64,000 bases of DNA from Candidatus Thorarchaeota archaeon (GTDB lineage: Archaea; Asgardarchaeota; Thorarchaeia; Thorarchaeales; Thorarchaeaceae): assembly GCA_048882045.1 (NCBI GenBank), contig JBHLRZ010000003.1, forward strand, positions 128,001 to 192,000. The letters are read 5' to 3'. Both the position numbers and the translations under genes were made by a program. Shown in pieces: positions 8,794 to 22,817 of this stretch. The number at the start of each line of letters is the position of its first letter. Position 1 is the stretch's first letter. Below the pieces are notes generated by a model, which saw nothing but the letters and a program-made list of their open reading frames with translations, was not told where the DNA came from and made no database searches.

Positions 8794-9198
8794 ATGGTGA
8801 ACAATCAATTGAGTAACGATTATTCAGATGAACCAAGGAAGAAGAGAAAATCTAGCTCTGACGATGCAGAAGAACTGAGGGCTGTAGCTGAAGCACTGCC
8901 AGAGCTGTTCAAAGCAATCAACACATCAGTGCCAGAACTGATTACAAATCTGATTGGAAGCATATATAGTCCTGAGGCAGCTGGAAATTTGGCAGCCGGG
9001 ATAGGTAAGTTCTACAGTGGGCTAATTGCTGAGGGAATCCCGGAAGATGTTGCGCTAGATATGACAAAGAAATTCGTTGGAGCTCTCGACTTTAGTAAGA
9101 TCATGTCGATGGTAAGTGATGAAGCATCAGTTGGAAGAAAGAAACGGCGACACTCCGACTCCAAAGATGAGTACTTTGATGATGAGGGGTATGAGTAG
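8794..9198 (+). CDS. Hypothetical helical protein
   Basis: 134-aa ORF with FYSGLIAEGIPEDVALDM motif shared with the next gene. Confidence 0.8.
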   Translation: MVNNQLSNDYSDEPRKKRKSSSDDAEELRAVAEALPELFKAINTSVPELITNLIGSIYSPEAAGNLAAGIGKFYSGLIAEGIPEDVALDMTKKFVGALDFSKIMSMVSDEASVGRKKRRHSDSKDEYFDDEGYE

Positions 9199-9200
9199 AA

Positions 9201-9491
9201 TTGGGAACAGCCAGATCTATTGCATCCATCACTGGAACAGCAATAGGCGGTGGGTCTAAACTCCTCTTCAAAGTGTGGTGGGCTCTCCGAAAAGGGCGGG
9301 CACAGGTCAAGAAAGGTGCTAAGACCTTCTATAACACACTAGTCAGGGCAGGAATTCCAAAAGAAGATGCGAAGCAAATAGCACTTGCCTATGCTGCACC
9401 TGCGTGGGAGGTTCTGAGCATTCGAGGTGTCTTTCGAATGTTAAGAGATGTTGATGGAGTAGAAATCCCCAGCATGCCATTTGGATGGTGA
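9201..9491 (+). CDS. Hypothetical protein, distant paralog of the upstream gene
   Basis: FYNTLVRAGIPKEDAKQI motif; starts 2 nt after the previous stop. Confidence 0.75.
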   Translation: MGTARSIASITGTAIGGGSKLLFKVWWALRKGRAQVKKGAKTFYNTLVRAGIPKEDAKQIALAYAAPAWEVLSIRGVFRMLRDVDGVEIPSMPFGW

Positions 9492-9965
9492 TCACTTCAC
9501 CACGAGGACAGGGACTTCTGATCCCACAACAACGCGTTCAGCAGAACTCCCTACTCCACCTCTTAGAGAACCAGCCATCCCATAAGACCCAATCACAATC
9601 AGGTCAACCTCTTTTTCCTTAGATAGCTGCATAATCTTGTCAGGGGGTGAACCTTTCTCAAGAAGGAGTTCGACCTCAAGTTTGTAGTCGTCAGCTGCTC
9701 CTTTGTACCCATCCAGAAGTTTCTGTCCCTGGGTTTCATACTTGACCAGTACTTCCTCAGGATCAGTTTCTGACATCAGCGAGAACTGCTTCACAATTGA
9801 GTCGTTTATCACGTGAATGATAAACACCTTTGATTTGGTCATCTCTGCAATTTCGAATGCAACCGTGGCTGCACGAGCAGACCCCTCGCTCCCGTCCACT
9901 GCGAGCATCACCTTGTTCGCTCTACAGAAAATGTGGCCAGGGGCGCAATACCTGATTTCTTCCAT
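9492..9965 (-). CDS. Universal stress protein (UspA family)
   Basis: KVMLAVDGSEGS, DLIVIGSYG, GSSAERVV and VPVLVVK motifs. Confidence 0.93.
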   Translation of the reverse strand: MEEIRYCAPGHIFCRANKVMLAVDGSEGSARAATVAFEIAEMTKSKVFIIHVINDSIVKQFSLMSETDPEEVLVKYETQGQKLLDGYKGAADDYKLEVELLLEKGSPPDKIMQLSKEKEVDLIVIGSYGMAGSLRGGVGSSAERVVVGSEVPVLVVK

Positions 9966-10078
9966 GATTTAGATTGTGTATATTCACTATAATTAACTTT
10001 GGGTCGGACCTTTGTGCTAACATTTAACTTGAGGCTCGGATATCATTGGATAAAAGACTACTTAGGAGGCGTGTTTGA

Positions 10079-11461
10079 ATGGCACGTTCTGATCTATACG
10101 AATATCATGAAAAACAGGAATATCCCAGTCATAAAGGAGCGATTGCAGGACTCCTCGTAGTCTTCGGTGCCTTTATCGTCTTGGGAATTTATTCACTTAT
10201 GCAACTTTGGTCCGTCTATGAACCGGAGATTGTGAGTCTCATTACTATGGTATCCCCTCTCCTTGCAGATAATCTTTGGTTATTGGGAGCTGGACTAGGT
10301 GCATTGCTAGTGTTGAGCATAATTATGGCTCTTGGAGCTTCAGTTGCGGCAAAACGGTTGGGTGGAACCCTCATATACATTGGGGCATTTTTGATGAATC
10401 TACTCACCTGGGCGATCCCATTGTTCCTCATTGTTACAGGTGTTATACCAATATCGATGCTAGGTACAGCATGGCCAATACTGATACCAGGCTTTTTCAC
10501 TCTCTTCATCACTCTATTACTATTTACAGTATTCAAAGAGAGAGTGAGGAGAGCAGGAGAGATCATCAAATTAACAGGTCAAGTCACTTTGGATGAGAAA
10601 GGAACATTCGTACCCCCATTCCTCACCATGATCTTCACACTTGTATCTGCACTGTTCTTTGCGGGAATCATGCTTGTGGTAATACCTGACGGAATGAACA
10701 TTCTACTAGGCAATGTTGACCTGACTCTGGAGAATGGATGGCCTTTTGCAATAGGTGTTGTTGTCTACCTGTTCGTCACCATCTTCTTCTACAATTTCTC
10801 ATATGCCACAACTTCAGCTATTACCTATATCTACATGAGAGGAAGAGATCCTAGTCTTGGAGATGGTGTAAAGGCGTCACTTGGTGTCGTCGGAGGATTG
10901 ATTGTTCTGAGCATCATGAGTGTGATTGTGACACTCATCAGAATGATCATTCAGGCGGTGGCGCGGAAATCGAATAATGCCTTAGCGAGGGGTGTTGGTT
11001 ATGCTACTGAGGGCATAATAGGTTGGATCTGGGCGCTCATAAACTACTTCACCATACCAGCCATGGTTGCTGAAGAACTCAGTGCGACAGAGGGAATCAA
11101 GCGTAGCGCAGGTCTTGTCAGAAAGAACTTCGTTGATGTCATGATCAAAGAAACCGCCGTCAGATGGGGTTTTAGCGTTTTGGCATTCATGTTCTTCATC
11201 GGATTTGCCCTTGGTGGGGCGTTGTTTGGATGGATCTATACGAATGGCGACATCATGATGACGATAGTGATTACTGTGGTCTTTGTTGTCTTCGCTTCGA
11301 TTCCAAGTGCGATTGTGCTGAGGACTTTCGATATCGTCTATGTCACACTTCTCTACGTTTTCATTAGACGAAAAGAGGGCGATTATGAAAGAACTGCGAT
11401 CCCAAGCCCGATGGGTAGGGAATTGGAAGGCGCTTATAACAGAGCCCAGAATCAGAGATAA
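10079..11461 (+). CDS. Polytopic membrane protein, CTL/SLC44 choline-transporter-like (DUF6159-related)
   Basis: About 10 TM helices; RVRRAGEIIKLTGQV, PSLGDGVKASL...IVTLIRMII and TIPAMVAEELSATEGIKRSAGLV segments; AGGAGG RBS. Confidence 0.6.
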   Translation: MARSDLYEYHEKQEYPSHKGAIAGLLVVFGAFIVLGIYSLMQLWSVYEPEIVSLITMVSPLLADNLWLLGAGLGALLVLSIIMALGASVAAKRLGGTLIYIGAFLMNLLTWAIPLFLIVTGVIPISMLGTAWPILIPGFFTLFITLLLFTVFKERVRRAGEIIKLTGQVTLDEKGTFVPPFLTMIFTLVSALFFAGIMLVVIPDGMNILLGNVDLTLENGWPFAIGVVVYLFVTIFFYNFSYATTSAITYIYMRGRDPSLGDGVKASLGVVGGLIVLSIMSVIVTLIRMIIQAVARKSNNALARGVGYATEGIIGWIWALINYFTIPAMVAEELSATEGIKRSAGLVRKNFVDVMIKETAVRWGFSVLAFMFFIGFALGGALFGWIYTNGDIMMTIVITVVFVVFASIPSAIVLRTFDIVYVTLLYVFIRRKEGDYERTAIPSPMGRELEGAYNRAQNQR

Positions 11462-11473
11462 TTCAATCAGTTA

Positions 11474-11513
11474 GTGTGTGGTGGTCAAGAACCATCACAC
11501 ACCTACTCTTTTT
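11474..11513 (+). terminator. Stem-loop followed by a U-tract
   Basis: GTGTGTGGTGGT-CAAGA-ACCATCACACAC then CTACTCTTTTT, just after stop 11461. Confidence 0.7.
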
Positions 11514-11543
11514 CAAACCCAAGTACAGAGTCAAAGGTCAAAT

Positions 11544-11792
11544 CTAAGGATATCTTCCTCTTGGGAGGACATTCATTGCTTTTTCTGCAGCATGCGGATT
11601 TATTGCATAAAGAACGATTATGATAAGAACCGTCACTGCGAAGTATGTGATGATTAGTCCGGAAGCTGGTGCTTCGAAGAAGGTTCTAAGAAGGTAGAGC
11701 AAAATTAACAGTCCAATCTGAGTGATGCAGAGGAATGTTTCAAACTGCTTCCTCATTCCAGTCCCAGGTTGTCGCTTTTTCGTTTTTGGCAC
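11544..11792 (-). CDS. Small two-TM membrane protein
   Basis: 82 aa, basic N-terminus, two hydrophobic helices; 10 nt downstream of the peptidase gene. Confidence 0.7.
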   Translation of the reverse strand: MPKTKKRQPGTGMRKQFETFLCITQIGLLILLYLLRTFFEAPASGLIITYFAVTVLIIIVLYAINPHAAEKAMNVLPRGRYP

Positions 11793-11802
11793 GATCTGCC
11801 TG

Positions 11803-13023
11803 TCACAACCACTCGAATGCTTTATTCCATGTTACACTTGAACCTGAATAAGGATTCATGTAGACCGTTCTAAAGAATTCAGGGACAACATCCTTCTCAA
11901 TGGCCTTGAGAAATGAGGGATAGACATAGTTTGTGCGTCCGACATAGTATGTGAAGATGTAAGGTGCGAAGAAATTCGTCTTTCCATCCTTTGTTCGAGG
12001 ACCTATGAAAGCGAGAGATGCTTCAGCAGTTTCACGTGTCCTAAATGTTCTCTCACAGATGTAATCAATCACTTCCTCTTCTGATTTTCCTTCATCATTA
12101 AGAAGGATCGCTGCATTGATTGAAGTCATCCTTCGGACAGGGTACAACGCTTCATATACCGCAACTCGAGATTCTTCTTCAGTAATTCCGAGGAAATCCT
12201 TAGCTGTGTCAGCAGTACCCTCAGATATGACACATCGGCCAGTATGTAGAGGTACTATTGAAAGTTCAAGATTTCCTGAATTCAAGTAGGCTTTCTCTCT
12301 CCACAAGTTAGACACATGGTGTTCATATTCATGATACAAGGTGGCTTGTAGTATGTCCTTGTTGAACTTTCTGTCGATATTGAACTGGTTCAGAGACTTG
12401 AATTCTCCTTTGTACCAGTTATACCCACCCCATGGTTCATCTCTCACAGCTTCATATTCAATCCCATTGTCAGGGACGGAAGCTCCCATTACTGAATAGA
12501 TCTTGGTCCTGAACTCCTGACCGATTTCAGAAGACCGTTGTTGAAGGTCGGTTTCAAGCAATCTTTTGAGAGCATCTCCAGTAACCTCGCCCTCCGTTGT
12601 GTAACGTTCTATCTTTTCGGACAAATCTGCACCTGGATAGTCAGCCATAACCTCAGCCAATTGCTCGTTGCCCTTGTCAATCTCACGCTCAGAAAACTTC
12701 TCCATTGGAATCTGAAAGAGACCCTCCACGAGTTCACCATAAGACATGTCTTTTCCATCCAACCAATCCACCACAACATTCAGCGAATGAAGCTCACCCA
12801 TCATATACTCGAACCGGAGAGGATCATTAATCTCATCCCTCACCATATCAAAGGTCTGCTGGATTTCATAAACAATATCCGAAGATGCTTTGTCTGTGCT
12901 CTGTTTCTTGGGATGGAACTCAGGAGGTCCTGTATACGCATCAACAACACTCACTCCTGTAAGACGTTCTGTAAAATTCCCAACCTCTCCACAGACCTTC
13001 ACGAATCTCTCTGCAGCTTTCAT
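11803..13023 (-). CDS. Zincin-like metallopeptidase (DUF885-like)
   Basis: TLYHEYEHH (HExxH), downstream ISEGTA glutamate, PWGGYNWY and YIFTYYVG. Start is ATG 13023 or GTG 13122; no signal peptide. Confidence 0.7.
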   Translation of the reverse strand: MKAAERFVKVCGEVGNFTERLTGVSVVDAYTGPPEFHPKKQSTDKASSDIVYEIQQTFDMVRDEINDPLRFEYMMGELHSLNVVVDWLDGKDMSYGELVEGLFQIPMEKFSEREIDKGNEQLAEVMADYPGADLSEKIERYTTEGEVTGDALKRLLETDLQQRSSEIGQEFRTKIYSVMGASVPDNGIEYEAVRDEPWGGYNWYKGEFKSLNQFNIDRKFNKDILQATLYHEYEHHVSNLWREKAYLNSGNLELSIVPLHTGRCVISEGTADTAKDFLGITEEESRVAVYEALYPVRRMTSINAAILLNDEGKSEEEVIDYICERTFRTRETAEASLAFIGPRTKDGKTNFFAPYIFTYYVGRTNYVYPSFLKAIEKDVVPEFFRTVYMNPYSGSSVTWNKAFEWL

Positions 13024-13150
13024 TGTGACCAAGTGAGAAATGCAATGCTGACCTAAAGTGTTTGCCATTTGAGTCGTCACTCTTGGGAGTGTTTCCTTTT
13101 TGGACAGAGTATCGCTGTTCACAGACTATTGATTCCAAGAGAGAGAAGAT

Positions 13151-13300
13151 CTATCTGAACCCTCCTGACACACAGGCACTATGACATGCGCTGTGACACG
13201 CACTGTGACAGACACAGGCGCTATGGCAAGCACTATGGCATGCACTATGACAGGCATCATGTGAAACGCATGCACTGTGGCAGGCATCGTGAGATACACA
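13151..13300 (-). repeat. Coding tandem repeat: 7x CHSA and 2x CVSHDA (11 Cys, 9 His in 49 aa)
   Basis: Read codon by codon; each of the seven CHSA units uses a different synonymous codon combination. Confidence 0.95.
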
Positions 13301-15280
13301 CCTGCTTGTACTCTCAATGAGGGGTCTAAGCGGCTCTGTGATTATGTTTCCTACACCTTCTAAAACACTACCAATAGTATTTGCTACATTATTCATGATT
13401 TGCCCTGTTGTAGCAGCAACATCACCAACCACCTGACCGACTCCAGAGATAGTGTTTCCTGTTGCGTCAGCTAACTGAGAGAACCAGTCTGGTACTATTG
13501 GCGGAGATATTGCAGGTCCTGGTCTGGTGAACACATCACCTATGTGATCATGTCGTGGATGCATGTATAACCAGTACCAAGCCCATCCACCCCCATGATA
13601 TCGACGGTTGAAGTAATAGTCCATCCGTCCATCCAGAGTGGGATAGCTCTCAAGCTCATCCCATGCACCTTCAATCATTTCATCGTGATTTGTCTTGGTA
13701 GCTTCAAAGTCAGCAGTCCAGGATTTTTCTTGAACCTTGTCAGCAAGTTCCTCGAGCATTGCATCTACCTTTTCAGGATCCAGTTCATTCTCAACAATTG
13801 CAGCTAAGAACAGTTCCTCGTAGTAAGTAAGGTCTTGAAATTGAAGGCCTGTGACTGAGAGTTTGAGTGGTTCTGTCGAGAGTACCCTGACAGCTCCCTT
13901 TCTGACGCAAGACATCAGAATCATTGTCACCAAATCTTGTCGGGTTGTATTGACAAAGAACGCAGACTCAATTGGATCCAACTCTGCAACTGTGCCTGGT
14001 TCACCGAAAGTCTGGATGGAAATCTCCGGACTCTCGTACACATAGGTTGTATCATCCGCTTCCCATTTTGCACCATAGGTTCGAGTGACTCTTCTGTATC
14101 CGTAGTAAATGACGCCCAAACCAAAGAATATGACAAATCCACCTATTAGATAATTGGGATTGATCAATGGAGGGATGTACTCCTGAACATAGATGTCCAC
14201 TGTGAATTGTAACCAATCTGTTGAGTTGAGGTTCGATGCACTGACTTGGAAGGATATTGTGAGCACCTGCGGAGTGTTAGCTGGTACGATTGAATATACT
14301 TGGTACCATGTTTCTCCGCCTGTGAGGTCACCAACATATGTTGTCACAGACCCTGATGTCAGTGTAAGATTCTCAGGAAGAGACATGGTTATTATAACTT
14401 CCTCAAGGTCAGCATCTCCAAAGTTGTATATCGCCACTTGCAGATCAAATTCAGTTTCTGCATTTGCATTTACGTAGCTGACTGCACTATATCCTAAAGC
14501 CCCGGCTTGCAAGAATGGTTCATAGAAACTCCAATTAGTGTAGTGCCAGACCCGAAAGTGAGTGTACGCATCCAAGTTGTTGTGTTCTAGACTGACAGTG
14601 AAGTTTCTTGTAGCAGCACCTGCGTCATATGGATATGCAAGGAGATTGTTAACATCAAATGAATACTGAGTTCCGCCGTCCCAAAGACCTTGATTGTCAT
14701 CAACTACATACCCTGCATATTCTGCTCCCTCAGGAGTTATTCCATGCGATGGTTCAATCCATGTGGAATTCATTACAATTGGATAGATCACCTGAACAGC
14801 TTCATAATCAATGGGAATTTCCCACTGGACTGGAGCCCAATTGAAGACACCTAAATCGCCATAGGTTTCGGAGGTCGTCTTCTCAATGACTCTCTCTGTG
14901 CTAAAGTAACCAAAGACTACAGTGACTGTTTCCCCCTCTTGAGTTCTTGGCACCCAGTCCAGTCCATATCCATCCCAATATGTTGTAACAAGCAGATTAT
15001 ACTTCTCTTCTCCAACCTGCGCATATGCTCTATCAGGGTCCCAGATTCTGGTTTCCTGAATTCCTCTTAAGTCAAAACCGCCTAGTGAACCACTCTCAAC
15101 AGTAATTTCAATCCAGTAAGTAACATTGATTCTTCCATTTGGTAAAACGAAAACATCAACCAGTACGCTGTTTAAATTCACAACTGGACTCTGACTGGGA
15201 ACACCTCCAGCAAAACATATGGGCACCACTGACAATATCAGTAGTCCAATGATCAGGTAATTGCCCAGTTTACGCTTCAC
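13151..15280 (-). CDS. DUF2207-like single-pass membrane protein with C-terminal Cys/His (CHSA)n repeat; putative radical SAM substrate
   Basis: Signal peptide, DUF2207-like ectodomain (VDVFVLPNGRINVTYWI), Ig/CARDB-like domain, one TM near aa 377-395, cytoplasmic LTYYEELFL region, then the CVSHDA/CHSA repeat ending SGGFR. Confidence 0.85.
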   Translation of the reverse strand: MKRKLGNYLIIGLLILSVVPICFAGGVPSQSPVVNLNSVLVDVFVLPNGRINVTYWIEITVESGSLGGFDLRGIQETRIWDPDRAYAQVGEEKYNLLVTTYWDGYGLDWVPRTQEGETVTVVFGYFSTERVIEKTTSETYGDLGVFNWAPVQWEIPIDYEAVQVIYPIVMNSTWIEPSHGITPEGAEYAGYVVDDNQGLWDGGTQYSFDVNNLLAYPYDAGAATRNFTVSLEHNNLDAYTHFRVWHYTNWSFYEPFLQAGALGYSAVSYVNANAETEFDLQVAIYNFGDADLEEVIITMSLPENLTLTSGSVTTYVGDLTGGETWYQVYSIVPANTPQVLTISFQVSASNLNSTDWLQFTVDIYVQEYIPPLINPNYLIGGFVIFFGLGVIYYGYRRVTRTYGAKWEADDTTYVYESPEISIQTFGEPGTVAELDPIESAFFVNTTRQDLVTMILMSCVRKGAVRVLSTEPLKLSVTGLQFQDLTYYEELFLAAIVENELDPEKVDAMLEELADKVQEKSWTADFEATKTNHDEMIEGAWDELESYPTLDGRMDYYFNRRYHGGGWAWYWLYMHPRHDHIGDVFTRPGPAISPPIVPDWFSQLADATGNTISGVGQVVGDVAATTGQIMNNVANTIGSVLEGVGNIITEPLRPLIESTSRCVSHDACHSACVSHDACHSACHSACHSACVCHSACHSACHSACVSGGFR

Positions 15281-15304
15281 AGATTGACCCTCTGAACCAG
15301 TACT

Positions 15305-15697
15305 TCAATCTCCACGCTGAGCACGCAAGACATCAGCCTGAGCGATAGTGAGGTTAGATAAGTCAGCCTTAGCTGCAGCCCACTCCACAATATCTGGAAA
15401 CTCCATAATCATCCCACCCCAGACAAGGTGGTAGACTCGCTTCAGTATCACACTTGCATCAGCTTCTTTCCCGACATACTCAAAGAAACATTTCACTACT
15501 GCTGGTGTCTGTTCGCTCATGTCCTTAGGGACTTCAGTCCCAAATCCAGCGAACTCTACATCAAGCTCACGGAAAACGTCCATTCGTTCCCTGATTCCTG
15601 CCGCAATGACTGGGAGGTCCATGTCATAGGCACTGAAATGCATGATGAGTTTTTTCTTGCTAATTGTGCCATATGGTAGTTTGATTTCTGTGCTCAT
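15305..15697 (-). CDS. Hypothetical protein upstream of the Cys-tail gene
   Basis: MSTEIKLPYG... from ATG 15697; stop is 24 nt before the next start, so probably co-transcribed. Confidence 0.75.
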   Translation of the reverse strand: MSTEIKLPYGTISKKKLIMHFSAYDMDLPVIAAGIRERMDVFRELDVEFAGFGTEVPKDMSEQTPAVVKCFFEYVGKEADASVILKRVYHLVWGGMIMEFPDIVEWAAAKADLSNLTIAQADVLRAQRGD

Positions 15698-15815
15698 TCG
15701 ACCACACTCCACGATGATACTGTCAATGAATCAATACTGGGGACTCTTAAAACTTTCAGATTTCCAAACTCATCCATCCGAACCCTTAAGACACCTAAGA
15801 TTGGATTAGCGCTTA
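15698..15815. promoter_or_regulatory. Divergent promoter region between the Cys-tail operon and the radical SAM operon
   Basis: 118-bp gap with TATA-like CTTAAAAC near 15747 and CTTAAG near 15785, about 25-30 nt before ATG 15816. Confidence 0.45.
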
Positions 15816-17246
15816 ATGACCTCAACTCGATCTGTTCCAGAATACAACTATTCATTGGAAGATCTGCACTGGATACCAGCATTCATTGAGGAGGTCAAGG
15901 ACTTCTTCTTTGCAAGACCACAGGACAACCTCCTCATTCTAAGACCAAACAAGACGATGAGCCTGAATGAAACAGCCATGAGAATGTTGAAGAAACTTAT
16001 GGACAAGGAGCCGATTGAGAAGATTGTTGCACACTTCGTGGATGCTGGAGGAGAAGAACAGAAGGTCATCAACGATTTGGCAGCATTTGTAGACGACCTT
16101 CGAAACATGACAATAGGAAACCAGAACATCTACAGCTACAGGACAGCAAAGATAGTCCCCTTCGGAGAGGGTGAGATCAAGTACCCTGTCTTGAGCGAGA
16201 TTGCACTCACCTATCGTTGCAACAACAAGTGTAGATTCTGCTACGCATACTCTCCGTTCCGAGAGTCAGGAGAAATGACAACAGAAGAGGTCAAGCGAGT
16301 CATTGACATCATAGTTGATGATGCACACGTACCAAGTCTTTCCTTCACCGGAGGAGAGCCAACACTGAGAGAAGACCTCTTCGAGCTGATCACTCATGCG
16401 AGAAACAGAGAATTACGAGTCAACCTGATCACCAATGGCATTCGGTGTCATGACAAGGCATTTGTCCAACGACTTGTCGATGCTGGATTGAACAGTGCAC
16501 AGGTTTCAATAGAGGGACCAGATGCAGAAACGCACGACTACATAGTCGGGATTCCTGGAGCCTTTGACAAGACTGTCCAAGGAATCAAGAATCTACGAGA
16601 AACAGACATCTATACACATTGTAACACAACGATATGTCGTCCCAACTTGGACAAGCTCGAAGACCTTGTGGACTTTCATGCTGATGAATTGGGTTTGACA
16701 TACTTCAGCATGAACATGGTCATCTACACAGGTACTGCAGCAAAGTTGAGAGATGAACTCCAGGTGAAGTACTCTGAGATCAGAGAGATCGTCAAACGAG
16801 TAAAGAAACGAGCGAACAAGAAAGGCATTCAGTTTGTCTGGTATGCACCTACTCCTGTCTGTCTATTCAATCCAATCGCTCATGGTCTCGGTGCGAAGAG
16901 TTGTGCTTGCTGTGATGGATTGCTCTCTGTTGATGCAGAAGGGGGCTTATTGCCTTGCTCGAGCTTCAGCGAACCTGTTGGTAACATATTGCACGAGGGT
17001 TTCGAGAAGGTATGGTACAATCGTGCCTCCCAGTTTTGGAGGGCGAAAGACTTTGCGCCAGAAGGGTGCAAAGCTTGTGACCACTTTGACTATTGCTATG
17101 GTGCCTGTCCACTCTATTGGGATGTCCATGGATTTGATGAGATAAAGGAATACTGGCCTAAGAAGAGTAAAGTCAGAGAGAGAATTGATGAAGCCAGATT
17201 GAATCTGAGAAGACGCATCCGAGGAGATCAACACGGCATTACATAA
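15816..17246 (+). CDS. PqqD/RRE-radical SAM-SPASM peptide maturase
   Basis: N-terminal RRE-like NLLILRPNKTMSLNETAMRMLKKL...DLAAFVDDL; CNNKCRFC (CxxxCxxC); FTGGEPTL, TNG, VSIEG; SPASM cysteines CACCDG...LLPC...CKACDHFDYCYGACP. Confidence 0.92.
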   Translation: MTSTRSVPEYNYSLEDLHWIPAFIEEVKDFFFARPQDNLLILRPNKTMSLNETAMRMLKKLMDKEPIEKIVAHFVDAGGEEQKVINDLAAFVDDLRNMTIGNQNIYSYRTAKIVPFGEGEIKYPVLSEIALTYRCNNKCRFCYAYSPFRESGEMTTEEVKRVIDIIVDDAHVPSLSFTGGEPTLREDLFELITHARNRELRVNLITNGIRCHDKAFVQRLVDAGLNSAQVSIEGPDAETHDYIVGIPGAFDKTVQGIKNLRETDIYTHCNTTICRPNLDKLEDLVDFHADELGLTYFSMNMVIYTGTAAKLRDELQVKYSEIREIVKRVKKRANKKGIQFVWYAPTPVCLFNPIAHGLGAKSCACCDGLLSVDAEGGLLPCSSFSEPVGNILHEGFEKVWYNRASQFWRAKDFAPEGCKACDHFDYCYGACPLYWDVHGFDEIKEYWPKKSKVRERIDEARLNLRRRIRGDQHGIT

Positions 17247-17250
17247 GGGG

Positions 17251-18378
17251 TTGGCATCTATGAAAGTGACAGACCTGCTTAGTCCAGCTGCAATAATCGA
17301 CATTGATAGATTAGATACCAACATCGAAGCAATGGCTTTGAAAGCTGAAGAGAACGGAGTGGGTCTCAGACCACACATCAAGACCCACAAATGCATTGAA
17401 ATTGGCAACCGTCAGAAGGAGGCTGGAGCCAAAGGCATCACGGTCTCTACACCTGCTGAGGCTCAAGCTTTTGCAGAAGCTGGTTTCACTGACATAACAT
17501 ATGCAGTTCCACTTGCACCTGACAAGTTCGATACAATGCTTAGTATTTCAAAGAAGGTTCATCTGAATGTGCTTGTTGACAACATCACTATAGTAGATCT
17601 GCTTGCAAAGTTCTCAACAGAAAATAATGCTGACTTCGGTGTCTTACTCAAGGTTAATTGTGGAAATTATCGGGTCGGAGTAGATCCGACAAGCCAGTCC
17701 GCTCTAAAATTGGCAGAAGAGATTTCACGCAAGCTGAACTTCGAGGGAATCCTCGCCCATGCAGGCCAATCGTATTCTGCAAGGTCAATTGGTGAGATCA
17801 AGAGAATTGCTGAGCACGAGCAAGATGTCATGATCAATTTCGCGAATTCACTGAGAGTGGAAGGTATTCAAACAAAAACCGTCAGTATCGGGTCTACTCC
17901 CACAGCAAGCTTGGCGGATTCCTTCAGAGAAGGAATTACGGAGATTAGACCTGGCAACTACGTTTTCTTCGATTACACTCAAGCTGCCTTAGGCGTCTGT
18001 GAGCTCAATGATATTGCTCTCACAGTTTTGGCGAGTGTAATCAGTACTTCACCTGGAAGGGTAATCATCGATGCTGGAGCAACAGCTCTCTCAAAGGACC
18101 TTGGTCCAACTCAGATCGATGAATCTGGCGGATATGGAAAGATCATCAAAGACTATCACACCTCCACCATTGAAGAAGAGTTCATTCTCAGCTCATTATC
18201 TCAAGAGCATGGTAAAATCAGTATAGCAACAGAACACAGTCTGAAACCGGGTGACGCTGTCAGGATATTTCCAAACCATTCTTGCCTCACAGTCAATCTC
18301 TATGATCAATACTATATTGTTCAAAATGATTCTGTGGTTGACAAGTGGAAGATTCAGCGTCAACGTCTTGCTTCATGA
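17251..18378 (+). CDS. Fold-type III PLP enzyme, D-threonine aldolase / D-serine dehydratase family
   Basis: LRPHIKTHKC (PLP lysine), HAGQSY, SIGSTPT, EIRPGNYVFFD, DAGATALSKD, SQEHG, PNHSC. Confidence 0.9.
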   Translation: MASMKVTDLLSPAAIIDIDRLDTNIEAMALKAEENGVGLRPHIKTHKCIEIGNRQKEAGAKGITVSTPAEAQAFAEAGFTDITYAVPLAPDKFDTMLSISKKVHLNVLVDNITIVDLLAKFSTENNADFGVLLKVNCGNYRVGVDPTSQSALKLAEEISRKLNFEGILAHAGQSYSARSIGEIKRIAEHEQDVMINFANSLRVEGIQTKTVSIGSTPTASLADSFREGITEIRPGNYVFFDYTQAALGVCELNDIALTVLASVISTSPGRVIIDAGATALSKDLGPTQIDESGGYGKIIKDYHTSTIEEEFILSSLSQEHGKISIATEHSLKPGDAVRIFPNHSCLTVNLYDQYYIVQNDSVVDKWKIQRQRLAS

Positions 18379-18418
18379 TTTCTAGAGTTCTGCGGTGTTT
18401 TTATACAACAACACGGAA

Positions 18419-19285
18419 GTGACCCATGAGGGTATACTGTTGAGTAGTGGGGATATACAACTAAATGTGCTGAAGCATATCGAGAGTCTAGAAGAGGGAA
18501 TACCTCAGATCTATGGAAACATGGCTGTAACGGGTCTGAGTGACGTAAACGCAGAACTGTTCAACGGAATCATTTCGACTCAGATAGCTCTCGAAGTAGG
18601 GAACATGCAAGTTGAGGAGTCAGGTAATGTTCCGAGTCTCCGGTTCAACGCAGAACAACCAACTCTGATACGTTGCGGTGAGGGAGTTCTTGGAGGAGGT
18701 CTGCAGGACAGGATCATAGCTGAAAGCATGGTCATTGAAGGGAATCGATCTCTCAACGTGTTTTGCATTGAAGCAGGTCGATGGTCTGCAAAGACTGGAG
18801 AGTGGTTACATACAAACACACCTGTTTCAATGCGGCGGGCGATACTAGGGGGGCGAGATCAAAGGTATGTTTGGAGTGAGGTCCAGAGAATTCTTGGATC
18901 TTGGGGTGTGCACTCAGGAACCAGTGCATTAGGAGAACTCTATGTGAATCATGGATTTGCATTCGAAAAGTTAGCTACGAGATTTGATTGGTCTGACGAT
19001 GATGTGGGAATGATTGTCACAATTGATGGCAAGGTTCATGGAATAGAGATCTTTGGAGACAAGATGGGTCTGAGAAGAGACTATGCATCAATCCTCAAAG
19101 AGAGTTATGCACCAATAGCACTACAAACTGCAAGTGGAAAATCGATGTCATATGAGGATGTCCACGACGCCATCAATGAATTCTTCTCCGAACTCCATGC
19201 TGGTACTCGCTATGCACAGGTTGTGAACCACATGGAAATCTGGCTTATGCGTGTGCAGTATGAAAGTTTCACTTCAAACGATTGA
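18419..19285 (+). CDS. ARPP-1 / DUF6569-like protein
   Basis: VEESGNVPSL, GEGVLGGGLQDRII, VFCIEAGRW, QRYVWSEV and GMIVTIDGKVHGIEIFG pattern. Start GTG 18419 or 18395; the 3' end may be frameshifted. Confidence 0.75.
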   Translation: MTHEGILLSSGDIQLNVLKHIESLEEGIPQIYGNMAVTGLSDVNAELFNGIISTQIALEVGNMQVEESGNVPSLRFNAEQPTLIRCGEGVLGGGLQDRIIAESMVIEGNRSLNVFCIEAGRWSAKTGEWLHTNTPVSMRRAILGGRDQRYVWSEVQRILGSWGVHSGTSALGELYVNHGFAFEKLATRFDWSDDDVGMIVTIDGKVHGIEIFGDKMGLRRDYASILKESYAPIALQTASGKSMSYEDVHDAINEFFSELHAGTRYAQVVNHMEIWLMRVQYESFTSND

Positions 19286-19979
19286 CGATCTTGTGTCCAC
19301 AGTAAGGACAAGTTTCCTCTTCACCAGGTAAAACAGGCGCGTCCAGCTTACCATCACAATTTGGACACTCAGTGATTGCCTTAGGAAGCTGTGATACGGC
19401 TTCTTGTGTATAGATTACACGTGAGTTCTCATCAATCACTCCCCTGAACTTTCCTGACTTTGATAGCTCTTTCATTGCGTCGACGATTTGTTCATCGGAA
19501 GCTTCTGTAACTTTCGAAATCTGGTCAAAGGTCATTCTTCTCTGAGCATAGAGAAGGTGCAGGAGACTCTCCTTTAATGACACAGCCTTGGGACTGACTA
19601 TCTCATAAGCGGCTCGATCAAGATAGACCAGAGGTATACGACGAGTTGCAAGCTTCTCAGCAGCATCAGCGACTGTTTCAGAATCCACATCTAGCTCCTT
19701 AGCAGCAGCGTCGACACTGATTCTACCCTCCTTCTGGACAAGAGAAATCAAGTCTCCCGATACATCACCGATTCGAGCTTCACGAGTTCCTTTGGCAATC
19801 AACCAAAGACCAGCAATCAGCTCAGGAAGTGCAAGGATTGACCAGGCAATCATACCAGATGCAATCAGCGTCATGATTTCACCACCAACAGTCATCGTAC
19901 TCTGATAGACAATCAGAGTCATTGCTCCGCACACAATCACGAGTATGATGCCTAGAAACTGCGCAAGTCTTGGATTCAC
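19269..19979 (-). CDS. Two-TM protein with tandem winged-helix (PCI-like) domains and C-terminal double zinc ribbon
   Basis: Two N-terminal TMs; ISVDAAAKELDVD and MTFDQISKVT...ELSKSGKFRGVIDENSRVIYT winged helices; CPNC...CPYC. Confidence 0.75.
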   Translation of the reverse strand: MNPRLAQFLGIILVIVCGAMTLIVYQSTMTVGGEIMTLIASGMIAWSILALPELIAGLWLIAKGTREARIGDVSGDLISLVQKEGRISVDAAAKELDVDSETVADAAEKLATRRIPLVYLDRAAYEIVSPKAVSLKESLLHLLYAQRRMTFDQISKVTEASDEQIVDAMKELSKSGKFRGVIDENSRVIYTQEAVSQLPKAITECPNCDGKLDAPVLPGEEETCPYCGHKIVNRLK

Positions 19980-20186
19980 GTCACTCTCTCTCCGACCTTT
20001 TCAGAAATGTGGAACCAATTATAGATTCCGACTCACGAAATCATGGAAAATTGGCCAATAAGGGGAATTTTCATCAAAAATGGAGCCCATTAAGTACAAT
20101 CTCCATCTAACAGAATCCAAGCCTTCCCGACGGATAAGTTATATATACAGAGACAGAACACAAATGAAGTACAGACCCTGAAGGAC

Positions 20187-20615
20187 GTGTATGAATCTTT
20201 GGTGATTGATAAAGAAGGGGCTACGAGTGCTATCATTCTACATCTGACACCCGGTGAACCGGTTGTCTTTCCAGCTGAATTTGTGGCAGATATAGGGGAA
20301 AAAGCAGGGCTAGTGGTCATGCACCACAAAGACCGCGTCGTCAAAATCTTCCCTGTTGCCAATGAGGACATCTATCTGCTCAGGATCGAGATAAGTGATC
20401 TGTCTCGTAACTTCTTGAAGCAGCTGAACTTTGCGTTCAACGACGCCAAGCTGAGTGACATCATATTCACCACCGGCGTATGTCTTCGTGGCGAGAGATG
20501 CTACTATGAGTGCTACTTCATTCCAGACCAACTGGTTGTGACACTCAACGAGCTTGAAGACAGCCTGAAGAAGATTCCTGGAGTTTCCAGAGTCGTCTTG
20601 AGAAAGGTCGCATAA
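20187..20615 (+). CDS. Hypothetical protein with ACT-like C-terminal fold
   Basis: Beta-alpha pattern ending ELEDSLKKIPGVSRVVL; TTATATA box near 20139. Confidence 0.65.
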   Translation: MYESLVIDKEGATSAIILHLTPGEPVVFPAEFVADIGEKAGLVVMHHKDRVVKIFPVANEDIYLLRIEISDLSRNFLKQLNFAFNDAKLSDIIFTTGVCLRGERCYYECYFIPDQLVVTLNELEDSLKKIPGVSRVVLRKVA

Positions 20616-20621
20616 TCCGAT

Positions 20622-20746
20622 GTCGATGGACCGTAAGGACGGTCTAGAGCGGTAGTTGTGCCCAAAGAATCGACCTTACTAGGTCCAGAGAGAGCCTCTG
20701 CCCTTGGTATGAGGCTCACTATGCCTTTTTGTTTAACTATAAACAA
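20622..20746. other. Cluster of stem-loops between convergent genes (terminator or structured RNA)
   Basis: GACCGT-AAGG-ACGGTC, GACCT-TACT-AGGTC, GAGCCTC...GAGGCTC, TTGTTTA-ACTA-TAAACAA. Confidence 0.45.
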
Positions 20747-20750
20747 GGGT

Positions 20751-21152
20751 TTACATGTCATCCTTATTAGTTGAAACGAAATCAGTGTTGTAGAGATAAG
20801 AGATTGTTGTAATCATAGGAACAATGAATAGCAGAGAGTAAAGAACTCTAAACGCGTTGATAGTGATAACATAATCAACAAGAAATGTCATAGCAATCCC
20901 TAAACAGTTATAGAGAATATGGAACAAGAGCCAGTTTTTGGTCCGCTTTCTGTCAGGTTCTGTGTCTATTTCGAAAGCAGATATGAGAGCCAACATTCCA
21001 ATCAGATGTTGAGCAGGAGCTATGCCTGAAAAAAGAACATTGACTTCAGGAATCAGTCTAAGAAACATACCAGATAGTAACAAAATTCCTTGAAACACGA
21101 AAATAGCTGTGTAATATCGTTTTGATCCCTGTTGGTCGTTGATTTCCTCCAT
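20751..21152 (-). CDS. Hypothetical four-TM membrane protein
   Basis: 133 aa, four hydrophobic segments, AT-rich. Confidence 0.7.
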   Translation of the reverse strand: MEEINDQQGSKRYYTAIFVFQGILLLSGMFLRLIPEVNVLFSGIAPAQHLIGMLALISAFEIDTEPDRKRTKNWLLFHILYNCLGIAMTFLVDYVITINAFRVLYSLLFIVPMITTISYLYNTDFVSTNKDDM

Positions 21153-21189: not shown

Positions 21190-22026
21190 CTACAAGAGTT
21201 CCAAACCTTCTTTCCTGAGCTCCCTATAATTCCGGAGGTTGTCTGGAATGTAGGCATCCAGGAACACGTTCAGTATGTTCTCTGAATCTCGCTCGATTCC
21301 ATAGCTCTTGAAGTACTTGAGAACATTCTTGATGTCTCGACGAAGCATAAGCTCAACCTTGTTCATGTCTGACCACTTGTTGACAACCTCACCTTGTGGC
21401 ATGTCAATGATCCATGGACTATCCTGCCACCAGAGGATGTTGTAACCACTAAGGTCCCCATGAACGTAATGTGCTTCGCTGTACATGAGAAGATACTGGT
21501 CTAGAACCTCGTTCATCACAGCCTCTGGATCTTCAAGCTCTACTTCACGGAGTTGTGGTGCTGGATTTTCTCCATCACCAATGAACCTCATAGTGAGATA
21601 GTTTGCAACCCGTGAGATAGGAGTAGGAACCCTGACTCCAGCCTTGTAGCAGGCCTGAAGAATGTCGAACTCCTGAACTGCTATGTCCTCCACAAGACCA
21701 AGAATCCATCTTGTCTTCTTTCCACTGGACTCACGGATGTATCCTTTGCCCATTGATAGCTTGTGGGGAGTAGCCCAGAGTCGATAGGCCTTTAGGATGA
21801 TAGGATGGTCATTCCATGTAGCAAGAAAGATTGAGGCCTCCTTTCCTGCACTCATAGGATAAAGCACATCGTGAGCCAGTCCAAACCGGATTGCATCATC
21901 ACGGATCTCCTTGAACTTCGGTTCTTCGATTGTGGCTTTCCCGCAAGTACCACCTCGAATAGCATCACGTTTCTGATCAATAGCACTCCCTTTTGAGAGA
22001 GGATTGAACTTGTCGACACGACTCAT
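21190..22026 (-). CDS. RIO1-family atypical protein kinase (paralog 2)
   Basis: SAGKEASIF, ILKAYR, VHGDLSGYNIL, IIDMPQ, LRRDIKNV. Confidence 0.92.
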   Translation of the reverse strand: MSRVDKFNPLSKGSAIDQKRDAIRGGTCGKATIEEPKFKEIRDDAIRFGLAHDVLYPMSAGKEASIFLATWNDHPIILKAYRLWATPHKLSMGKGYIRESSGKKTRWILGLVEDIAVQEFDILQACYKAGVRVPTPISRVANYLTMRFIGDGENPAPQLREVELEDPEAVMNEVLDQYLLMYSEAHYVHGDLSGYNILWWQDSPWIIDMPQGEVVNKWSDMNKVELMLRRDIKNVLKYFKSYGIERDSENILNVFLDAYIPDNLRNYRELRKEGLELL

Positions 22027-22817
22027 ATTCGTGCGACCTCCTCAGCGAAGTGCCTCTGGTTATGTGGAACATACTCTGACAGAAAGACATCGAGTATCTC
22101 ATCAGGGTTTCGTCTAATCCCATACTTCTTGAAGTACGATAGGACATTGACTATGTCTCGTCTGAGTAATGACACTATGTTCTTCATGTCAGACCATGGT
22201 CCGACCTTGCAAGCCTGTGGCATGTCAATGATCCAAGGACTATTCTGCCACCAGAGGATATTGTAACTACTCAAGTCCCCATGCACATAATTGGCATCCC
22301 GATACATGAGGAGATAATCGTCAAGTATCTTGTCCAATACAAGATCGGGTTCCTCAAGCTGGACATTTCGCAATTGGGGTGCAGGTTCTAGACCGTCACC
22401 AATGAAACGCATTGTGAGATAGTTGCCCACTCTACCGATTGGAGTTGGTACTTTCATACCTGCCTTGAAACAAGCACTGAGTAGGTCATACTCCTTTGCA
22501 GCCAAGACCTGCATTCTCCCAGGAGCGAAGAATCCTTTCTTTTTCTTTGCCTGAGATGTGTTCCAGAACCTGAATGCTTTGAGGATGATGGGATGATCCT
22601 TCCACATTGCCAAGAATATCGAGGCTTCTTTCCCTGCGTTCATCTGGTACAATATCTCAGTAGCCAAGCCAAACTTGACAGCGTCTTCCTTCACTTCATC
22701 CAGAGTGATCTCACTGATCTGGACTGTCCATCCTCTCTGATTACCTCGCTGGGCATCTCTCTTAATGGAGAGGGCATCAGGCTTTCTCGGATTGAGCTTC
22801 TCAACCACTCCGGCCAT
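22023..22817 (-). CDS. RIO1-family atypical protein kinase (paralog 1)
   Basis: NAGKEASIF, VHGDLSSYNIL, IIDMPQ; GAGGTG RBS; ATGA overlap with paralog 2. Confidence 0.92.
   Translation of the reverse strand: MAGVVEKLNPRKPDALSIKRDAQRGNQRGWTVQISEITLDEVKEDAVKFGLATEILYQMNAGKEASIFLAMWKDHPIILKAFRFWNTSQAKKKKGFFAPGRMQVLAAKEYDLLSACFKAGMKVPTPIGRVGNYLTMRFIGDGLEPAPQLRNVQLEEPDLVLDKILDDYLLMYRDANYVHGDLSSYNILWWQNSPWIIDMPQACKVGPWSDMKNIVSLLRRDIVNVLSYFKKYGIRRNPDEILDVFLSEYVPHNQRHFAEEVARI

Follow-up and report, generated by a model that had tools for sequence, protein, structure and literature searches.

A radical SAM enzyme and a Cys-His-tailed membrane protein in Thorarchaeota: a candidate maturase and its candidate substrate

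The locus described here lies in a 64,000-nucleotide stretch, called the window below, of contig JBHLRZ010000003.1 (assembly GCA_048882045.1, positions 128,001 to 192,000). The host is a Thorarchaeote, as the nearest homologues of the two central proteins carry that name. These proteins are a radical S-adenosylmethionine (SAM) enzyme with a RiPP (peptide made on ribosomes and modified after translation) recognition element (RRE) and a SPASM domain (window 15816-17246, plus strand; 476 aa, single copy), and a 709-aa type I membrane protein related to the DUF2207 and TIGR04222 families (13151-15280, minus strand), which ends in a dense repeat of Cys and His. We regard the former as a candidate maturase and the latter as its candidate substrate. 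The first gene of the substrate operon encodes a 130-aa soluble protein of no assigned family (15305-15697, minus strand), an accessory that is not universal, and a divergent intergenic region of 118 bp (15698-15815) lies between it and the enzyme gene. An earlier note, made from the letters of this DNA, had described these open reading frames (ORFs), their coordinates, the tail sequence and the 118-bp gap, all of which were reproduced on recheck. The GC content of the locus (0.44-0.46) equals that of the window, thus giving no sign of an island.

The enzyme and the membrane protein

In the enzyme, the Pfam models PqqD, Radical_SAM (PF04055) and SPASM (PF13186) all score above cut-off. The N-terminal PqqD/RRE-like domain proposed earlier is borne out by sequence profile (PF05402 at residues 41-97, 26.1 bits against a cut-off of 23.4) and also by structure. 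[quoted passage not shown] The best full-length fold match is SkfB (Z 28.0, root-mean-square deviation, rmsd, 3.7, 346 residues aligned), and SuiB also matches over its full length (Z 26.5, rmsd 3.6, 379 aligned). Both alignments include the RRE and begin at residue 21-29.

The SAM-cluster motif CxxxCxxC (C135, C139 and C142; 16218-16241, plus strand) is invariant in 102 homologues. Seven auxiliary-cluster Cys are conserved in the same set, namely C349 in the linker, C363, C381, C418, C421, C427 and C431 (16860-17108, plus strand); C349 is invariant, and C365 and C366 are variable. The "full SPASM" set of cysteines read by the earlier note did not hold up, as the last Cys after CX2CX5CX3C is missing here and unconserved among homologues, and the invariant upstream linker residue C349 is present instead. 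This residue resembles the linker Cys of SuiB and AhbD, in which the linker donates the first ligand of auxiliary cluster I (AuxI) (PMC6231123, PMC10452713), so by analogy AuxI may be fully protein-ligated in the present enzyme, leaving auxiliary cluster II (AuxII) with three Cys.

No named NCBIfam family that was listed or tested reaches its cut-off for the enzyme. The scores, in bits against the cut-off, are 151 against 500 for AhbD, 133 against 381 for PqqE, 108 against 625 for StsB, 108 against 268 for HxsC (TIGR03977), 45 against 525 for TIGR04463 (CrpC), 35.6 against 350 for TIGR04115 and 20.7 against 370 for TIGR04269. An identity as AhbD, NirJ or PqqE was dropped, since every score is far under cut-off. 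Four residues close to the catalytic site (Y143, T178, I205 and S231) correspond to Y113, T147, I174 and S199 of StsB when mapped by motif landmarks (PMC10288494), and the fifth and sixth positions (S382 and S383) are unlike StsB.

The membrane protein was correctly described before as single-pass, with a signal peptide and one transmembrane (TM) helix predicted (residues 375-399; 14084-14158, minus strand). Its ectodomain (14174-15190, minus strand) comprises a DUF2207-N beta-sandwich (residues 31-251) and a Thorarchaeota-specific Ig/CARDB-like domain (residues 258-369). On the other side of the membrane, a juxtamembrane YxxPx[ILVM] motif with a strand-like insertion (residues 415-429; 13994-14038, minus strand) is followed by a folded helical domain in the structure model (residues 430-590) and then by an amphipathic pre-core linker (residues 598-659; 13304-13489, minus strand), which is helical in the model, has a hydrophobic moment of 0.33-0.53, and differs in length and sequence between lineages. 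The protein closes with a 49-residue core (residues 661-709; 13154-13300, minus strand) of ten H-[S/D]-A-C units that ends in VSGGFR and contains 11 of the 13 Cys of the whole protein. An N-out/C-in orientation is predicted, as all groups shown have basic residues after the TM helix and six of the seven N-glycosylation sequons lie before it. The tail is therefore predicted to be cytoplasmic, as the earlier note held, and on the same side as the enzyme.

The core is the sole (CHxA)n run in all six frames of the genome. Across 30 genomes of the family, its codons carry silent differences at 53% of positions and residue changes at 0.7%, compared with residue changes at 26% in the preceding 49 residues. 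Such silent divergence with almost no residue change indicates that the core is selected as a protein and not as a DNA repeat, and it rules out a DNA-repeat artefact as the source of the tail. Binding of c-type heme, which a CX3CH reading of the tail might suggest, was rejected on account of the predicted topology and of the His-free sister tails described below.

The membrane protein itself matches no DUF2207 or TIGR04222 profile over cut-off. Among its homologues, at loose E-value thresholds, DUF2207 matches 15 of 65 proteins and TIGR04222 matches 24 of 56 cytoplasmic domains (best E 5.9e-9). The tailed proteins are related to both families by sequence and form a separate subfamily, which would have arisen when a DUF2207 protein acquired a Cys repeat at its C-terminal end. 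The cytoplasmic domain has no significant sequence match in the PDB. The modeled DUF2207-N domain (14528-15190) is closest to the luminal domain of ribophorin I/Ost1, the best among 48,161 chains (Z 15.5, rmsd 3.3, 186 aligned, 10% identity), with a small lead over the N-domain of the M1 aminopeptidase ERAP1 (Z 13.0), and the top Foldseek matches are chains of the oligosaccharyltransferase (OST) complex. The likeness to ribophorin I/Ost1 is one of fold and not of function in these models, and it raises the question of homology between DUF2207 and ribophorin.

Linkage of enzyme and tail across genomes

Starting from homologues of the enzyme, the neighbouring genes consistently end in Cys-repeat tails, in Thorarchaeota-type and bacterial loci alike, which is the co-occurrence that the earlier note had asked for. 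The membrane gene is found in 44 of 44 Thorarchaeota-type loci with upstream sequence. For the bacterial homologues (Chloroflexota and Armatimonadota, 47-53% identity), all 26 loci that could be judged have a (CHSA)n-tailed relative of the membrane protein directly upstream, on the strand of the enzyme gene. Starting from the tail as a DNA pattern, the enzyme is present in 54 of 57 judgeable metagenome loci, mostly less than 200 nt away; the three misses are two Thorarchaeota-type contigs that end before the divergent enzyme and one spurious tail match. Starting from the carrier, with its cytoplasmic domain as the query and the tail removed, 60 of 68 representatives of at least 500 aa end in HxAC (20) or CAC (40) tails. 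The linkage is kept despite rearrangement, the genes being divergent in the Thorarchaeota type and co-oriented in bacteria.

A survey of 400 Asgard genomes found the His-type tail in 62 and the CACACAGGG type in 60, or either in 121; the two overlap in a single genome, which has a hybrid tail, and the reversed-pattern control gave 0 matches, which speaks against a chance origin of the tail. Within the Thorarchaeota family of the window, 58 of 85 other genomes have the His type. As the surveyed Asgard genomes are related and incomplete, these counts are descriptive. The pair is also widespread in anaerobic bacteria, so it is not Asgard-specific, and the earlier view of it as especially unusual for an Asgard archaeon is less well supported. 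Viral matches to the CHSA pattern were discarded, being short frames without an enzyme homologue and, where inspected, off-frame within other genes. At one further locus (L034, genome G047), a CAC-class enzyme has no tailed gene beside it within 18 kb; the tail does occur elsewhere in the same family, often at contig ends.

The enzymes beside (CA)n tails form a clade of their own with a long branch (support 1.0, branch length 1.05; FastTree, midpoint root), and the enzyme of the hybrid tail and one His-type Asgard enzyme branch beside it. Both classes share all cluster ligands as well as T178, N207, Q229, N270, N300, W342 and Y343. Fixed differences on the barrel strands (L126R, E128D, S176T, N203G, S227H and S382Q) are of the kind expected if the pocket had co-adapted to a substrate with His in one class and with Ala only in the other. 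The hybrid-tail carrier itself (L265:7143-8465, genome G179, an assembly with many N runs) has HxAC units followed by CACACA-GGGW, and its enzyme, 3 kb upstream, branches between the two classes. Elsewhere, at L033 (G037), a (CA)n carrier lies between two RRE-radical SAM paralogues with a TM/Zn-ribbon gene directly upstream; the downstream paralogue lacks CxxxCxxC and C349 and is possibly an inactive partner. The same scaffold is also seen with other tails (P0287, P0345 and P0388), which have CDSS/CHSS repeats or CACVS-punctuated (CA)n.

The tails themselves have a strict register. In 83 distinct His-type cores, 95% of the Cys have H, Y or W at i-3 and 95% have Ala at i-1, which ties the unit to its downstream Cys; the spacing from the preceding Cys varies. 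Of ~1,230 four-residue Cys spacers, all but 3 begin with H, Y or F, and one tail has W. The His of the unit is replaced by aromatics only. Cys and Ala are the sole residues common to HxAC and (CA)n tails.

Proposed modification and its alternatives

In our view, the findings are best explained by an enzyme that is dedicated to maturing the cytoplasmic tail of the membrane protein encoded next to it. On insertion of the membrane protein, the tail would come to lie in the cytoplasm, and the RRE of the enzyme would dock on the cytoplasmic part, possibly at the juxtamembrane YxxPxI strand. The 5'-deoxyadenosyl radical would take a hydrogen from a residue of each HxAC unit, and the Cys sulfur would close a thioether, with -2 Da for each link and up to ~10 links per tail; the candidate acceptors are the His C-beta at i-3, in an NxxC-like manner, or Ala. 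The protein would stay whole, and its rigid, His-rich tail, tethered to the membrane and coupled to the ectodomain, could act as a metal/redox module or bind a partner. Chemistry on Cys is favoured, because only Cys and Ala are common to both tails and because the aromatic-free sister class keeps the same catalytic frame.

The earlier suggestion that the tail is the substrate stood up to both computational checks, namely the RRE by hidden Markov model (HMM) and structure, and the co-occurrence with Cys tails; the chemistry is still conjecture. Overall, the enzyme probably modifies the tail covalently in some way. That it does so by thioethers on the uncleaved membrane protein we consider about evenly balanced. 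The most specific form of the proposal is rather doubtful: about ten tandem His-containing rings on an intact tail (Cys sulfur to His C-beta, or His-Ala cyclophanes with free thiols), docking on a leader-like juxtamembrane strand ~240 residues upstream, as a membrane-tethered metal/redox module in most Thorarchaeota and many anaerobic bacteria.

A close precedent is CrpC/CrpA of Methanococcus voltae (TIGR04463), for which ranthionine links on a large archaeal protein have been shown (PMC13692751). As here, the neighbour of an archaeal RRE-radical SAM-SPASM enzyme is a large protein that ends in a Cys repeat; however, CrpA is soluble and has a 17-residue repeat with a C-x-x-Q/D motif, whereas the present candidate is an integral membrane protein and the auxiliary Cys pattern of the enzyme differs. 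In QhpD/QhpC, an RRE-using radical SAM enzyme makes thioethers within a protein subunit (as described in PMC13692751), but that is a small exported enzyme subunit, which has Cys-Asp/Glu links and lacks a repeat tail. TIGR04222 membrane proteins are paired with MNIO/DUF692 enzymes, and their Cys-bearing tail has been proposed as the substrate (Antoine et al. 2025, PMC12452194). There too a Cys-tailed membrane protein accompanies a RiPP-type enzyme, and the post-TM domain is homologous; yet the enzyme is of another superfamily, the tails are Gly/Ser-rich, variable and, by the prediction of those authors, periplasmic, and the pairing is loose, one third of the genomes lacking an MNIO enzyme. Radical SAM thioethers on whole proteins and Cys-tailed membrane proteins as proposed substrates of MNIO enzymes are thus already known.

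Other systems are similar in single features. StsA/StsB and SkfB also depend on an RRE, SkfB is the top fold match, StsB provides the matching proximity residues, and the CxCxC core resembles (CA)n tails (PMC10288494, PMC6231123); their precursors, unlike the present carrier, are short, free and without a membrane anchor, and the StsB model stays far under cut-off. The CXXX-repeat system (TIGR04114/04115/04117) likewise has Cys at every fourth residue beside a radical SAM enzyme, but its precursors are short, TIGR04114 does not match the tail, and a homologous tail scores 16.4 against 50 on TIGR04117. DUF2207 (YciQ-like) proteins, a family with a stress phenotype (PMC10457818), share the N-terminal domain, YxPP..LxP after the TM helix and a Gly-rich GG(G)W/R end, although ordinary members have no Cys repeat and their Gly-rich tail closes in GGW. 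The pair belongs, by its sequences, to none of the named families compared. No paper or curated family was found for it, nor for its motifs or for Asgard/Thorarchaeota radical SAM RiPPs, in a literature of which the coverage is incomplete. Radical SAM cross-linking is so far known from short peptides and two soluble proteins (QhpC and CrpA). If the proposal is true, this chemistry extends to the membrane proteome, through an integral membrane substrate with a tandem and near-invariant core, and the DUF2207/TIGR04222 scaffold gains its first biochemical handle; the two tail classes with their matched enzymes amount to a natural specificity swap.

The register of the tail, with H/Y/W at i-3 and Ala at i-1 of Cys, is compatible with an NxxC-like thioether joining Cys to i-3 and equally with a HaaB-like His-Ala cyclophane. 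The NxxcB enzyme links Cys to Asn by a beta-thioether and accepts Ala as well (PMC9389541). In the cyclophane case, the His ring or His C-beta would be cross-linked to Ala in three-residue rings on H-x-A, and the thiols would be left free for metal. Anchoring of the unit on His speaks for such rings, as do the agreement of H-x-A (or H/Y/F/W-x-A in general) with the aromatic-X-X motif of triceptides, the His-x-Ala motif of HaaB/HtkB (PMC11499958), and the SuiB-like linker Cys together with the close SuiB fold match. We nevertheless find cyclophanes quite improbable. The motifs of HaaB/HtkB and SuiB are free of Cys and reside on free peptides, the enzyme is far under the cut-offs of TIGR04269 and HxsC (by these models it is set apart, HaaB and HtkB themselves being uncompared), and sister enzymes with the same cluster ligands adjoin aromatic-free (CA)n tails, with a hybrid tail in existence.

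As to docking, YxxP is the recognition sequence of lasso-peptide RREs (PMC12710340), and YxxPx[ILVM] follows the TM helix in 64 of 65 and 70 of 77 carriers, in both classes, against a background of 5.8%. Residues 400-424 are of low confidence in the monomer model (pLDDT <50). A control found YxPP in tail-less DUF2207 proteins too, which weakens YxxP as a specific RRE signal; specific to the tailed carriers are only the hydrophobic residue after YxPP and an insertion of 7-12 residues. A co-fold of the enzyme, with three Fe-S clusters and SAM, and the last 130 residues gave no verdict (score 0.00) and carries no weight here; the fragment, moreover, is without the juxtamembrane motif. The juxtamembrane strand is a candidate RRE docking site and is offered as a lead only.

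Several observations weigh against thioether formation on the tail. The Cys pattern suggests an AuxI fully ligated by four protein residues, as in SuiB and AhbD; in CteB and CrpC, by contrast, AuxI has a site left free for the thiol of the substrate. Y/T/I/S at the proximity positions is likewise frequent among PqqE/NirJ-like enzymes, which make no thioethers. The two tail classes cannot both be accommodated by one Cys-to-acceptor register. The CAC enzymes sampled come mostly from three Asgard families, and the differences in the pocket thus do not count as independent events. Finally, arrays of Cys and His are well known to bind metals in their unmodified state.

This last point leads to a different account, in which the tail, unmodified or at most loaded with metal, is a Cys/His site for metal or Fe-S, and the enzyme acts elsewhere in the pathway or helps to load the cofactor, with the genes linked by shared function. 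Ten His and eleven Cys at i/i+4 would suit Zn, Cu, Ni or Fe, and such ligands are expected to be invariant; the pair is accompanied by a Zn-ribbon membrane protein, and the top HMM scores, though far under cut-off, are of the cofactor enzymes AhbD, NirJ2 and PqqE. On balance we hold this to be unlikely, as an enzyme with a fused RRE should act on a polypeptide, and there is no other conserved candidate nearby. Moreover, the invariant Ala/Ser spacers and an enzyme pocket that changes with the tail type are better explained by recognition by the enzyme, and His is replaced by Tyr or Trp and not by other ligands.

It is also conceivable that the membrane protein is a tethered RiPP precursor, from which the modified tail is released by proteolysis as a small product. 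A DUF885-like HExxH metallopeptidase (11803-13122, minus strand; HEYEH at residue 264) begins 28 nt downstream of the membrane gene; that it follows on the same strand had been noted earlier. It is DUF885-like by its Atlas match, is soluble and has neither a signal peptide nor a TM helix, hence would be on the same side of the membrane as the tail; the position of the core at the C-terminus behind a variable linker would also suit release. Of the Thorarchaeota-type loci, 33 have a peptidase gene of this kind near the pair, directly next to it in only ~8 and otherwise 0.4-2.7 kb away with intervening genes, and no homologue is found in any bacterial locus (0), so the releasing role envisaged in the earlier note is less well supported, and the peptidase is probably not an obligate part of the system. 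No transporter is conserved near the pair, and the InhA-like protease of the Chloroflexota operon is unrelated to the HExxH peptidase and probably exported. A conserved ectodomain-TM scaffold of 600 residues is an unlikely disposable leader, and in ordinary DUF2207 proteins the corresponding position is taken by a Gly-rich tail. The core may be released, but this is not supported as a general rule, and we give this account little probability. The free-standing precursor that the earlier note had failed to find is indeed lacking, with no plausible ORF in the intergenic gaps of 9000-21000. By the strict RiPP criterion of a short leader-core precursor, none is plausible nearby, and the tails of enzyme-linked loci sit on large carriers.

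Neighbouring genes and regulatory elements

The intergenic region contains two back-to-back BRE (B recognition element)/TATA-like elements facing outward (minus strand 15746-15759 and plus strand 15778-15791), both kept in an alignment of 22 Thorarchaeota regions, and they are putative promoters. A sigma-70 scan is not meaningful for an archaeal host, and the locus has no listed RNA holder. The start of the 130-aa ORF is the ATG at 15697, preceded by a conserved GGAGTG, and it is this start that sets the protein at 130 aa and the gap at 118 bp. In 53 Thorarchaeota-type loci, and in 4 metagenome loci of other types, this gene lies upstream of the one for the tailed protein, and it was not found in Chloroflexota loci; its product has no Pfam or NCBIfam match and no usable Atlas match.

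Downstream of the enzyme, a TM, winged-helix and Zn-ribbon protein (19269-19979, minus strand) is a possible accessory. Its gene is near the enzyme in 49 Thorarchaeota-type loci, and a profile match (probability 94.8, 66 columns) connects it with the Zn-ribbon gene of the Chloroflexota operon as a distant counterpart. In bacterial loci, the enzyme is followed by a ~400-aa coiled-coil protein in 35 cases (e.g., L094:6212-7393) and by a ~320-aa membrane-anchored protein in 30 (e.g., L127:494-1462); the two are unannotated, mutually unrelated and likely lineage-specific components of the system.

Three further features lie beyond the enzyme gene. A gene for a PLP (pyridoxal phosphate) enzyme of the alanine-racemase fold, similar to D-serine dehydratase/aldolase (17251-18378), begins 4 nt past the stop of the enzyme gene and trails it in 41 Thorarchaeota-type loci and in no bacterial locus. 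Between this gene and the Zn-ribbon gene is one for an ARPP-1 domain protein (18395-19285), which is present in few relatives. A tandem pair of RIO-like kinase genes (21190-22817) is kept near the locus in many Thorarchaeota.

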